A stretch of 64,000 nucleotides of DNA from a virus: IMG/VR virus record IMGVR_UViG_3300042454_000021, positions 32,001 through 96,000 of that record, one strand, 5' to 3'. The translations under genes and the position numbers were made by a program. Below the pieces are notes generated by a model. The model did not search any database. It saw nothing but the letters and a program-made list of their open reading frames with translations, and was not told where the DNA came from. Of this stretch, positions 8,091 to 58,821 are shown in pieces; the stretch's first letter is position 1, and each line of letters starts with the position of its first letter.

Positions 8091-8683
8091 TGCTAATTAG
8101 ACCAACATTTGAAGCCAACCCAGAGTTTCGTCAGATAACTCCATATCATATCGCTAATGCCTTTACACAAGAGGAGTTAGAGTGGATAGGTAATTTACAA
8201 CAACTATACCCTTATCAAGATGCTAGTATAGGTGGAGATGAAACATCCCAACTAGATGAGTCTATTAGAAAGTCTAGAATAAAATGGATACATCATGATG
8301 ATAAATCATGGTGGGTGTATGATAAGTTAGTTAAACACATAGAAGAGGCAAACAAAACATGGGGCTTTGCAATCAATTCTATCATTGATTCTATTCAATA
8401 TACAGAATACTATGAAGGTGGTGGTCACTATGACTGGCACATGGACGTAGGAAATCATCCAATGAACAATAGAAAGATTAGTGTAACAATACAACTATCT
8501 TCTCCTGATGATTATGAAGGAGGCGATCTTGAGTTTTGGGTGGGAAGAACTCCAGATAAAGCACCTAGAGAACATTTGTTAGCAATCCTATTCCCTAGTT
8601 ATCTAATGCACAGAGTGACACCAATAACTAAGGGAGTAAGAAAGTCTTTAGTTGTTTGGGTAGGAGGGGATACATTTAGATAG
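8090..8683 (+). CDS. 2OG-Fe(II) oxygenase, paralog of 5956..6543
   Basis: YDWHMD, RKISVTIQLS, HRVTPITKGVRKSLV; shares FT.EEL.WIGNLQ.LY with 5956. Confidence 0.9.
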   Translation: MLIRPTFEANPEFRQITPYHIANAFTQEELEWIGNLQQLYPYQDASIGGDETSQLDESIRKSRIKWIHHDDKSWWVYDKLVKHIEEANKTWGFAINSIIDSIQYTEYYEGGGHYDWHMDVGNHPMNNRKISVTIQLSSPDDYEGGDLEFWVGRTPDKAPREHLLAILFPSYLMHRVTPITKGVRKSLVVWVGGDTFR

Positions 8684-31778: not shown

Positions 31779-33684
31779 CTCCACCACAGGCAACTGATTC
31801 GTTGAAGTTAACTGTATCATCTATCTCTTTGATTTTAGTGATATCGATTTCTTTAAGTTCACCAATAAGTGAATTATATTTCTCTTCAGTGATGTCCTCA
31901 AAAGGAGCTTGCTGATAAGACCCACCCCAATAAGGTAGTACAGACAAACCATTATAGAACTCACGATTCTCCCACATCCAATCACCTACAGCTTCCCACT
32001 CATCCATATATCCACCTTCTGCTGGATTATACTGAGTGCCTTCACCATCATTCATATTAACTGCAATATACTTTCTAGTGCTATCAATAGAAATAGTAGC
32101 TGATACGTTGTGTGTATTGTCACCATGTACATGTCCTGCATTAATCCAATCAGTAGAGAAATGTTTAACTCTTTCTAATGTATCAAGAGCAGTTTCTGTA
32201 CGAAGGATAGAATCCTCTGGTGCCTTAACAGGAATGCGTACACAGATGGTATCTTGTGGGCGTAACACATCATCTTCTACTAACTCTGGATGATTAGTCA
32301 TTAGATACTGTGCAATGTCTTCGTTCTTGTTAAAACGCATTGTACGTAAATAATAATCGTTATGCCAAGCATGAATACCAGATGCTGTTCCCAATACCAA
32401 TGACGTTGTACCTGAAGGTTTAACACAACTAATACGAGCTGCTTCATTAATACCAGTCTTCTCAGAAATCATTTGATTAACTTTCTTAGCTACATTAGCT
32501 GCCATCTTTAAGTCATACTTCATAATCTCTCCACTTCCTATACCAGTCATACCAATACCTAATAAGGCATCGTGTTGAGTTGTTTTAGCCCAGATAGGAC
32601 GAAGGTAGTGGAAGTCAGTAAAGCCTGCCTGTAATGTACCAAAGAACGCAGCTGCACCTACACGATTGTTAAGATCATACTGGTCTTCTATATCACTTAC
32701 ATTAACCTCACATAAGTTACAGAACTGATAAGGACGTAGAGCAATCTCACAACATGGGTTGGTTCCCCAATCTTTGTTGTTACTCCAATACAATCCTGGT
32801 TCTCCACTTCCTGATGCTTCTATACGTTTCCATAAAGCAAAGAACTCTTCTTGACTAACTTCTCCACGCTTTAATACAGCAGAGTTGTTAGCACGTCCAC
32901 GTTGTTCGTTAGTCTCCCACCAGTTGCCATACTTACATGTAATCATTTCTTCTTCATCATGATCAAATAAAGAGATCATAGCTGAACGACGAATACCACC
33001 TGCAAGAACAGAGTTAGCGATATGACATAAGATATCATGGCAGTCTAGTGGAGATAACTTCTCACCTTCAGCCTTTCTATCTAACATAGCCTGAACATGT
33101 GTAAGACATAACTTCAATGGCTCTGGTCCTGGTGCCTTACCACCAGCTGTAACTAGACGCGCACCTTTCTCACGAACAGCACGATAGTCAAACTTTGGTA
33201 AGAATGATCCTTCAAGATAGGCTTTCATTAACACCTTTACAGCATCAGCCCATCCCATGATAGAATCTTCAACTAGATAGGTACGACCTTTACCTGGTTT
33301 CTTGATAGCTGGTAGCTCAGCTACGTGATGACGTTGTACACTATATCCTACACCTGTACCACCTAATAATAAGAACATACTTTCAGAGAAACTATGTAAG
33401 CTATCAATAGGTAGGTAACAACAGTTGTAAATACGTGCGTTGTTTACTTCAGCAGCAGCACCAGCAAATTGTAGTGCTCTCATAGAAGGCAAGATCTTCT
33501 TGTCTCTAATCATTGGAATAGACTCCTTGATTGACTCCTCTAAATAAGGATACTTCTTGATCATCATTGCCTCATAACGACTAATGATTTCATCCCATGT
33601 CTCTCTCCTGTTCAGCTCAGGAATAAACTTTGCATACTTGCTGAATACTGTTATTTTACTCAAGGCTTCTAATCCTAAATCCAT
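31759..33684 (-). CDS. nrdJ: Class II (adenosylcobalamin-dependent, monomeric RTPR-type) ribonucleotide reductase
   Basis: RRETW, YNCC, GGIRRSA, GTNPCCEI, VKPSGT, C-terminal CGGGAC. Confidence 0.92.
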   Translation of the reverse strand: MDLGLEALSKITVFSKYAKFIPELNRRETWDEIISRYEAMMIKKYPYLEESIKESIPMIRDKKILPSMRALQFAGAAAEVNNARIYNCCYLPIDSLHSFSESMFLLLGGTGVGYSVQRHHVAELPAIKKPGKGRTYLVEDSIMGWADAVKVLMKAYLEGSFLPKFDYRAVREKGARLVTAGGKAPGPEPLKLCLTHVQAMLDRKAEGEKLSPLDCHDILCHIANSVLAGGIRRSAMISLFDHDEEEMITCKYGNWWETNEQRGRANNSAVLKRGEVSQEEFFALWKRIEASGSGEPGLYWSNNKDWGTNPCCEIALRPYQFCNLCEVNVSDIEDQYDLNNRVGAAAFFGTLQAGFTDFHYLRPIWAKTTQHDALLGIGMTGIGSGEIMKYDLKMAANVAKKVNQMISEKTGINEAARISCVKPSGTTSLVLGTASGIHAWHNDYYLRTMRFNKNEDIAQYLMTNHPELVEDDVLRPQDTICVRIPVKAPEDSILRTETALDTLERVKHFSTDWINAGHVHGDNTHNVSATISIDSTRKYIAVNMNDGEGTQYNPAEGGYMDEWEAVGDWMWENREFYNGLSVLPYWGGSYQQAPFEDITEEKYNSLIGELKEIDITKIKEIDDTVNFNESVACGGGACELV

Positions 33685-57412: not shown

Positions 57413-58132
57413 TTATTTTTTAATTTGACGTGATAATAAAACTTGTTTTCTTTTAATTTCAATTAACTCTGGTGGTATATCTGCTCTTTTAATAGTTGTA
57501 TTACCAGTTAACAAACCTTTAATATAACTATCACCTACATTCTCTCTTATTTTATTCCTATGAGTACGATAACGATTATTAACTTTTTCTTTATTCTCGT
57601 TATAATATACTCTTGATCTTATTTTATTATACTCATTATAAACTTCTTTTCTACGTTTTATTATAGGTTCCATGTGACATTTTTTACAGTGATGCATACC
57701 TTTGAGATATTCTATAACTGGTTTATCAATAAAACATTTTGAACATTTTTTTATACCATCTATAATAGGAAACTTATAATTTTTCTTCATTCCCATCACT
57801 CTTCGATTTTTTTCATGATACTCAAGTGTACATAAAGAACAGTTAGCATATATTTTTCCATCTGCTTTCATATAATACTCAGAAACATGTTTATTTATAT
57901 TACAAGCTGTACATTTTTTGTGATCATCTATAATTGGATATCTTTTATTAACTTTTGCTCCTCTTGATCTACGTAAGTTATTAATATATTCAGCTTTACA
58001 TTTTCTACAATTAGCCTCTGGTGTAGAAGATCCATTTTTATTATTTCTAATTTGATAGTCACAAACAGGTTTTATAATATGACACTTAGTACATTCTTTG
58101 TGACCATCAATAACTGCATATAATAGTTTCAT
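57413..58132 (-). CDS. Protein with three tandem CxxC...CxxC zinc-finger repeats
   Basis: (YP/FP)IID.HKKCxxC...K...Y...CxxC repeated three times; no HNH core visible. Confidence 0.7.
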   Translation of the reverse strand: MKLLYAVIDGHKECTKCHIIKPVCDYQIRNNKNGSSTPEANCRKCKAEYINNLRRSRGAKVNKRYPIIDDHKKCTACNINKHVSEYYMKADGKIYANCSLCTLEYHEKNRRVMGMKKNYKFPIIDGIKKCSKCFIDKPVIEYLKGMHHCKKCHMEPIIKRRKEVYNEYNKIRSRVYYNENKEKVNNRYRTHRNKIRENVGDSYIKGLLTGNTTIKRADIPPELIEIKRKQVLLSRQIKK

Positions 58133-58360
58133 AATGCTATATATTTACAAGGTTAAAAAAATTGATAGTTTTAAAAAGCCAGGTCTATCAACTGAGCACA
58201 ATGATACAGATGGTGATGAAATACTTGTTAGTAAGACTTTCTTTCATCACCCTTCTTGTATTAACTTTTAGTTTTGGACACTACTGGTGGAAAGTTATTA
58301 AACCACCTCACGCATAGTACACTCATCTAAGAACTACCAAAGACTTATGTCTAACTGTCG

Positions 58361-58460
58361 TAGTCAGGACAGGATTCGAACCTGTATGATGGTTGCTTTA
58401 AGATTACGTTTTCACCCTTCTTTCCATCTAAGCTAGCGTCTACCATTTCGCCACCTGACT
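58361..58460 (-). tRNA. tRNA-like RNA (Leu-type D arm) with non-canonical or replaced anticodon region; no encoded CCA
   Basis: AGTCAGG/CCTGACT acceptor stem, TGGCGAAATGGTAGACGC D arm and ACAGG-TTCGAAT-CCTGT T arm; the 50-nt central region has no standard anticodon stem-loop. Confidence 0.75.
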
Positions 58461-58466
58461 ATATAA

Positions 58467-58597
58467 TATCCCTCTGCATTCAATTGTAATATAATAAGCT
58501 ACCTCTAACATTTAGTCTTTTGAACTAAACAGTCACTGTCCTGACCTATTACATTACAATTGCTATCCCTTGGGAAGATAGAATGATGCATTAAATA
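58467..58597 (-). ncRNA. Twister-like self-cleaving ribozyme candidate (P1 type with long P5)
   Basis: UAA-UGCA...CUAUC-UUCCCAAGG-GAUAG...UGCA-GAGGG, with a 17-bp P5 stem. Confidence 0.5.
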
Positions 58598-58600
58598 AAA

Positions 58601-58617
58601 GGGAGAACAAGTCTCCC
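58601..58617 (-). terminator. Hairpin with U-rich tail after ORF 58618
   Basis: GGGAGAC-TTG-TTCTCCC-TTTTATTT on the - strand. Confidence 0.55.
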
Positions 58618-58821
58618 TCAATAATACTCCTCGTCTTGGTCAACATAACCAACTTCAGGAGACACATACCTCAATCCTTCTTGATTAGGCATATCATCAG
58701 AAACTAATCTCCAATGAAATGAACCAAGAGGAGATGAATTAATTATATGTTGAGCTTCTTCTATTGAATAGACAAACATTATATGTCTACCCATGTAATC
58801 ATATATTTGATAAGTACTCAT
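58618..58821 (-). CDS. Hypothetical early protein
   Basis: A-rich leader. Confidence 0.55.
   Translation of the reverse strand: MSTYQIYDYMGRHIMFVYSIEEAQHIINSSPLGSFHWRLVSDDMPNQEGLRYVSPEVGYVDQDEEYY

Follow-up and report, generated by a model that had tools for sequence, protein, structure and literature searches.

Twister ribozymes of type P1 cut at their own 5' end. In this type (RF03160), P1 and the scissile U-A-A are followed by a P2 of four pairs, a short linker, a P4 stem whose loop L4 carries CCCAA and is closed by a near-invariant G-C pair, an optional P5, the 3' strand of P2, a GAGGG sequence and the 3' strand of P1, and the fold is held together by two pseudoknots, T1 (CCC with GGG) and T2 (two conserved pairs, GC/GC). 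In the structures, the closing pair is G-C, a Hoogsteen pair forms between U and A, and two T2 bases bulge out; it has been suggested that an altered P2 length may disturb the active site (PMC5408937). Natural twisters cleave well even where P1 is weak, P2 or P4 has imperfections or a P5 stem-loop is present; imperfections of the two-pair pseudoknot reduce cleavage, and an optional additional stem, P0, lowers it (PMC11662667). The role of bacterial and phage twisters is an open question (PMC5408937, PMC6765202).

Together with the hatchet, pistol, twister-sister and hammerhead ribozymes, twisters are clustered near phage genes (PMC10085705; PMC6765202). Another group of phage ribozymes, the minimal HDV-like theta ribozymes of gut phages, lies in non-coding regions directly beside tRNA-type genes, with the cleavage site against the tRNA, and has been proposed to act in maturation of tRNA 3' ends (PMC10879173). 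Here we analyse a locus of a freshwater phage that carries a 131-base twister-like RNA upstream of a tRNA-like RNA. On the basis of sequence comparison we consider it fairly likely that this RNA is a type-P1, P5-bearing twister variant that is transcribed with the minus-strand early genes of the phage; the early transcript would most likely be cut just upstream of the tRNA look-alike.

Results and discussion

The locus was studied in a window of 64,000 nucleotides, positions 32,001 to 96,000 of an IMG/VR virus record (IMGVR_UViG_3300042454_000021; 112,925 bp, 98% complete by CheckV), and coordinates below are those of the window unless a contig is named. The element occupies 58597-58467 on the minus strand and reads UUUUAUUU up to the predicted scissile bond and AAUGCAUCAUUCUAUCUUCCCAAGGGAUAG beyond it, followed by an 18-bp stem with a 46-nt interior and by AAUGCAGAGGGAUA; these are exactly the letters that an earlier note, made from the sequence without database searches, had given for a twister-like motif. 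The element folds with -37.7 kcal/mol (z -3.94), a stability reached by none of 200 shuffled sequences, and it is the only twister-like copy in the phage record, scoring 104 bits with the covariance model R1 described below.

From 5' to 3' on the minus strand, the U-rich strand at 58593-58597, which ends with U(-1) at 58593, is one side of the P1 that the earlier note had called weak; with the AUA at 58467-58469 on the other side it can indeed form at most three A-U pairs, with a bulge. The predicted scissile bond is the U-A step between 58593 and 58592, and the following A(+1) (58592) and A(+2) (58591) would correspond to the general-acid adenine of twister and to the adenine of its sheared A-G pair. 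The five-nucleotide 5' strand of P2, UGCAU (58586-58590), has its partner at 58479-58475 and is followed by an invariant C at 58585. P4 is made up of CUAUC (58577-58581) and, as placed by the alignment, GAUAG (58563-58567), and is capped by the L4 loop UUCCCAAGG (58568-58576), in which CCC (58574-58572) can form T1 with GGG (58472-58470). The 18-nt 5' strand of P5 (58545-58562), derived from the fold, begins with ten conserved nucleotides, CAAUUGUAAU, referred to here as the P5 base; the distal insert of 46 nt (58499-58544) is particular to the source phage, and the 3' strand (58481-58498) is placed by fold and alignment alike. The optional P5 that had been proposed is thus present, as an 18-bp stem around the insert. 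The next segment (58475-58480) comprises an unpaired A at 58480, which is A in 53 of 55 copies, and the P2 3' strand AUGCA (58479-58475). It is followed by GAGGG (58470-58474), in which G58474 has the position of the twister catalytic guanine and GGG is the T1 strand; A(+2), as in twister, could form a sheared pair with the first G of GAGGG, which lies opposite.

Copies of the element are numerous in environmental sequences. A 22-mer over L4, P4 and the start of P5 was present in 14 other viral contigs, where both halves of the motif are near-identical and neither the P5 interior nor the outer flanks show any relationship. Relaxing the pattern at the 3' strand of P4, with a script filter afterwards, yielded about 28 distinct copies with many differing P4 and P2 sequences. 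The covariance model R1 was built from an alignment of 18 copies (A1); in the window and 24 related loci (designated L with a number) it scored 27 copies highly, all of them viral except for one contig of a metagenome-assembled genome (MAG), L221, and in metagenomes it gave 53 matches among 59 pattern matches. A second alignment (A2) holds 27 copies, and 55 parsed unique copies were used for position counts. The distinct copies, in viral contigs, metagenome contigs and the one MAG contig, total 68. Since copies occur within unrelated flanks and dozens of them match the covariance model, the element is not a product of chance.

A blastn search of a GenBank phage collection with the region gave no match, and three of four pattern matches in bacterial genomes were discarded as chance matches inside genes. 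The only true relative in a bacterial bin is L221, a 111,986-bp contig (JBBAJS010000010.1) of a Sediminibacterium MAG. The contig, syntenic with the source phage, is a relative of nearly full length, and one product of 747 residues shows 85% identity; it is evidently itself a phage genome, and its assignment to Sediminibacterium gives a weak hint of a Bacteroidota host of the source phage. At the syntenic site of L221 a pair of twister-like copies stands in tandem, and the P5 base of one is wholly different (CAGAUAAG...).

These copies also bear on the simplest account of the locus, namely that the A+T-rich spacer holds nothing more than an intrinsic terminator and, after it, hairpins that arose by chance. 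A terminator scan does find a G+C-rich hairpin, GAGGGAGAC-UUGU-UCUCCCUU, with a U tract at 58599-58619 on the minus strand, abutting the predicted cleavage site, and no twister model matches the element. Conservation nevertheless refutes this account, as the 68 distinct copies have near-identical or covarying cores inside unrelated flanks, and we give it practically no weight.

The structure is supported by covariation, a check that the earlier note had proposed. In the 27-copy alignment, 94.6% of the cells assigned to pairs are paired, versus 28-48% when the partners are slid by 1-3 columns, and the covariation score is 0.331 versus 0.145 in shuffled alignments, with 0 of 500 shuffles reaching it. 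Compensatory changes are seen at all five P4 pairs, with 16 differing stem sequences, and three of the five P2 pairs covary (variants UGCA/UGCA, UGUA/UACA and UGCG/CGCA). The P5 base pairs are 98.9% paired, and three of them covary. In the P1 columns the share of paired cells is only 65%; the 3' side of P1 is mostly GAUA in the relatives, and there are some compensatory changes (UUUGU/GCAAA in L020, GU/AC in L065). The twister-like core is thus strongly backed by conservation and covariation, and the suggestion that the element is a variant holds.

The bases around the predicted cut are conserved. The AA that follows the cut site does not vary, and 53 of the 55 parsed copies have U at N-1, in agreement with the position of the cut predicted earlier (U58593-A58592, minus strand), and GAGGG is invariant in every copy, although the viral-scan pattern left it free. 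The patterns also left UAA, P2 and the 5' strand of P4 free. CCCAA of L4 is invariant as well, but the search patterns prescribed L4 and the start of P5, so that part of their invariance is by construction. The positions of U-A-A and GAGGG are those of the scissile dinucleotide, A2 and the catalytic guanine of twister (PMC5408937), and in natural twisters mutation at the positions that are invariant here abolishes activity (PMC11662667). Since CCC and GGG are without any variation across the copies, T1 pairing is compatible with the data and is unproven by covariation.

Covariation leads to a corrected fold around P2 and the second pseudoknot, which the earlier note had read as UC with GG. The pyrimidine after UGCA covaries not with the last G of L4 but with the purine 5' of the P2 3' strand: the combinations in the 27 copies of A2 are U:A (17), C:G (8) and U:G (2), and in the 55 parsed unique copies U:A is found 30 times and C:G 22 times. 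This covarying fifth pair makes P2 a stem of 5 bp and shrinks T2 to one C-G pair, C58585-G58569, which is C-G in 27 of 27 copies, with no variation, and which by analogy with twister is a candidate for the single T2 pair. By the same analogy, the stack of P2 and T2 would keep six layers, five plus one in place of four plus two. The U in L4 that had been regarded as extra is present, but instead of being supernumerary it probably forms, as U58576, a closing U·G pair of L4 with the last G of the loop, G58568; its equivalent is C in two variant copies (L036 and L020), which is consistent with a closing pair.

Some copies carry an insertion of 110-135 nt between the 5' strand of P4 and L4 (L036, 12888-13115, minus strand; L020, 6818-7117, plus strand; also L094, L087 and L027). 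The ends of the insertion are conserved, with GU(A/G)GAUAU(A/G)AAGACUUCUUA at the start and UAAUYAG(Y)C at the end, and in two copies the first U of L4 is swapped for C.

In the order of its parts, from P1 and the U-A-A through P2, the short linker, P4 with the CCCAA loop, P5, the second strand of P2 and GAGGG to the second strand of P1, the element is the same as a type-P1 twister, and T1 can form. P1 is dispensable and P5 is tolerated in twister, and here P1 is weak and P5 long; phage contexts near other ribozyme classes are likewise shared. The variant differs from twister in having five covarying P2 pairs rather than four, YC and GG in place of GC/GC at T2, which is reduced to one C-G, and a probable U·G rather than G-C as the pair closing L4 (C-G in two insertion-bearing copies). 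It differs further in its sequence-conserved P5 base with hypervariable inserts of up to 164 nt, and in the insertion of 110-135 nt that some copies have between the P4 5' strand and L4.

The earlier note had pointed to the Rfam twister models as a check. The twister-P1 model RF03160 (gathering score 67.2 bits) had no match at E<=10 in the source phage or in four relatives. Full Rfam scans in gathering mode of the window and 15 related loci gave the element no match to twister, twister-sister or any other ribozyme, and permissive scans (E<=10) of three short stretches, which included copies with a short P5 (21-63 nt), gave no twister and no other ribozyme on the element. As no Rfam twister model matches and two conserved features of twister are absent, the element is not filed as a catalogued twister member; judging from sequence, it is probably an uncatalogued phage variant of twister that works like twister. 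No description of a twister variant with a 5-bp P2 and a one-pair T2 was found in the literature searched. The hatchet, pistol, twister-sister and hammerhead ribozymes keep the same genomic company as the element, but their folds are unrelated and their Rfam models do not match it. In L065, a hatchet ribozyme (RF02678, 80.7 bits; 8518-8654, minus strand) lies 1.6 kb upstream of two copies and on the same strand, which is consistent with the known clustering of self-cleaving classes.

On the minus strand, a 126-codon gene and a 67-codon gene (58821-58618) are followed by the hairpin with its U tract, the ribozyme, the tRNA-like RNA, about 200-230 nt of non-coding sequence and a 239-codon gene. 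A hairpin and U tract precede about half of the 27 copies, with differing stem sequences. The hairpin at 58619-58599 may be a terminator, with read-through transcripts trimmed to the same end; alternatively, by analogy, it may be a counterpart of the optional P0 of twister. Of 44 loci, 34 have flanks in which open reading frames on the strand of the element clearly prevail, and 3 have flanks dominated by those on the opposite strand. Sites resembling sigma-70 promoters are as frequent as in shuffled sequence, and the likely Bacteroidota host uses other promoters. The neighbouring proteins, compared with Pfam and PHROGs, showed no RNA-related function. The 239-residue protein (57413-58132, minus strand) has three repeats of a CxxC...CxxC zinc-ribbon unit; its PHROG matches, to the endonuclease VII, HNH and Lar-like families, are weak. 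In four contigs (L036, L011, L014 and L221) copies stand in tandem, and there GAGGG is followed by the next U-AA cut site within 0-4 nt; this head-to-tail spacing is as expected for cutting at the predicted sites.

The tRNA-like RNA (58361-58460, minus strand) scores 38.4 bits with the Rfam tRNA model and has a 41-nt insert that replaces the anticodon arm; ARAGORN makes no tRNA call at these positions. It is separated from the motif by the 6-nt gap (58466-58461) that the earlier note had reported. The link to a tRNA-like RNA that the note drew holds for the adjacency here but is not a rule of the family: of 61 distinct downstream contexts, 8 have a T-loop motif in their first 400 nt, and only in the window and in L008 does a tRNA-like element directly adjoin the ribozyme. 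Moreover, with the cut at the 5' end of the ribozyme, as in type-P1 twisters, it is the upstream RNA that would gain its 3' end; the 5' end of the tRNA-like RNA would not arise from this cut.

The acceptor, D and T arms of the tRNA-like RNA are conserved and its centre is variable. The first 27 nt and the last 28 nt are found again in L005, L006, L012, L221, L010, L020 and L036, where they surround unrelated cores of differing length, with Rfam tRNA matches of 85-139 nt. RNA evidence came from assembled contigs of four wetland metatranscriptomes of one study, which cover 58357-58468 (the tRNA-like RNA and the tRNAs of relatives). Contigs of 103 nt from 3-4 of these runs equal 58361-58462 with one mismatch and one inserted A, and are the tRNA-like RNA alone, from a relative of the source phage; being confined to the tRNA-like region, the contigs have no bearing on transcription or cleavage of the ribozyme. 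Farther downstream, about 196 nt of non-coding sequence (58165-58360, minus strand) are 99% identical in L005, L006 and L012, where the flanking genes are 74-84% identical. This stretch has two clear hairpins and no Rfam match, and its conservation points to a non-coding RNA that is strongly constrained or was recently exchanged. Phage tmRNA genes are present in three of the contigs that bear the element (L021, 69-403; L036, 9393-9837; L094, 1730-2150; all on the minus strand).

The theta ribozymes are the nearest functional parallel to the arrangement in the window. Like them, the element is found in non-coding phage DNA with a tRNA-type gene as its immediate neighbour, and like them it would cut at its own 5' end and define the 3' end of the RNA upstream. 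Unlike theta ribozymes, which have an HDV-like fold and their cleavage site against the tRNA (PMC10879173), the variant lies upstream of the tRNA-like RNA, with the predicted cut 132 nt (58592-58461) before its 5' end, and the association with tRNA-type RNAs is only occasional.

Only the P5 interior is hypervariable among the copies (15-164 nt). Close relatives, with flanking genes 74-88% identical, have ribozyme halves that are 98-100% identical and P5 interiors that are unrelated. L014 shares the upstream gene and hairpin with the window, yet it lacks a tRNA-like RNA and carries two different copies; in L005 an additional module separates the ribozyme from the tRNA-like RNA; and L010 and L221 have one insert in common, on scaffolds with different P4. 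The insert of the window had no match in any related locus compared. The P5 base is a perfect inverted repeat that holds the palindrome CAATTG, and its sequence, fixed in part by the search patterns, is conserved beyond the needs of pairing.

Conserved halves around unrelated inserts, different cassettes at the same locus in relatives, halves far more alike than the flanking genes and an inverted repeat in the P5 base could all be read at the level of DNA: the halves would be recombination or cassette-boundary sites, acting as folded single strands like integron attC, the middle would be cargo, and the likeness to an RNA would be incidental. We consider this very improbable. The inverted repeat does not include P2 and P4, where compensatory changes are seen, and covariation (U:A versus C:G) also links the two halves through a long-range pair. 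The element points the same way as transcription in most loci, its layout agrees with that of twister position by position, and none of the neighbouring genes checked encodes a recombinase.

A less remote alternative, unlikely though still worth weighing, is a structured RNA, descended from twister or convergent with it, that is not mainly a self-cleaver but a stable scaffold presenting the variable P5 insert, for instance as a small regulatory RNA, a decoy or a protein-binding module, with the P5 base as a protein or processing site. The confinement of hypervariability to the P5 interior, the sequence conservation of the P5 base CAAUUGUAAU, the occurrence of the same insert on scaffolds with different P4 in L010 and L221, and a core that deviates from canonical twisters and receives no score from the Rfam models would all fit such a scaffold, and the perfect 18-bp stem of P5 could be an RNase III substrate. 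It would leave unexplained, however, why the strictly invariant bases (U-A-A, GAGGG and CCCAA) are those of twister chemistry and not of folding only, and why the junctions of tandem copies fall exactly at the predicted cut site. One RNA could, moreover, both serve as a scaffold and cleave itself.

In the window, the sequence GGUCAGGACAG (58546-58536), which consists of two P5-stem bases (58546-58545) and the 5' end of the insert, is complementary to CUGUCCUGACU (58362-58372), the 3' strand of the T-stem and acceptor of the adjacent tRNA-like RNA, over 10 Watson-Crick bases, or 11 with a terminal G·U. No shuffle out of 200 reached this complementarity in the window. A comparable antisense match was not seen in 24 other copies, and the pairing is unused in the minimum-energy fold of the 246-nt precursor. 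A general role of the P5 insert as antisense to the downstream RNA was rejected, as only the window exceeds the shuffles.

A more speculative reading, which we regard as improbable, makes the element a self-excising carrier whose payload is the hypervariable P5 insert: swappable small RNAs would pass between phages through recombination at the conserved P5 base and be released in units with 5'-OH and cyclic-phosphate ends. Tandem units could then be circularised by a host RtcB-type ligase, and the 10-11 nt antisense to the 3' arm of the tRNA mimic could allow the two RNAs to regulate each other's folding.

The twister variant that we favour would work as follows. Folded into a 5-bp P2, a 5-bp P4 capped by UUCCCAAGG, T1, a one-pair T2 and a long P5, the RNA would cut itself between U58593 and A58592. 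The upstream 67-codon message would be left ending in the hairpin and U tract with a 2',3'-cyclic phosphate, and the downstream non-coding RNA, comprising the ribozyme, the tRNA-like RNA and the conserved RNA of about 200 nt, would start with a 5'-OH. RNase P, if it acted where the tRNA-like RNA begins, would free the ribozyme and its P5 insert as a separate RNA of about 132 nt; in a tandem arrangement, each unit would be released as a discrete RNA. Catalysis, these products and a role of the P5 insert are what we infer from the conserved structure, the covariation and the orientation with the neighbouring genes.

Conclusion

The element provides a large natural data set. Its distinct copies number at least 68, most of them on viral and metagenome contigs from the environment; their catalytic positions stay constant, and two changes of the architecture go together, with one pair more in P2 and one fewer in T2. 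If the variant is active, current models and descriptors understate the plasticity of the double-pseudoknot core of twister, and a common phage ribozyme escapes standard Rfam annotation. The hypervariable inserts, tandem arrays and cassette exchange point to a module for RNA processing or RNA delivery in early phage transcripts.
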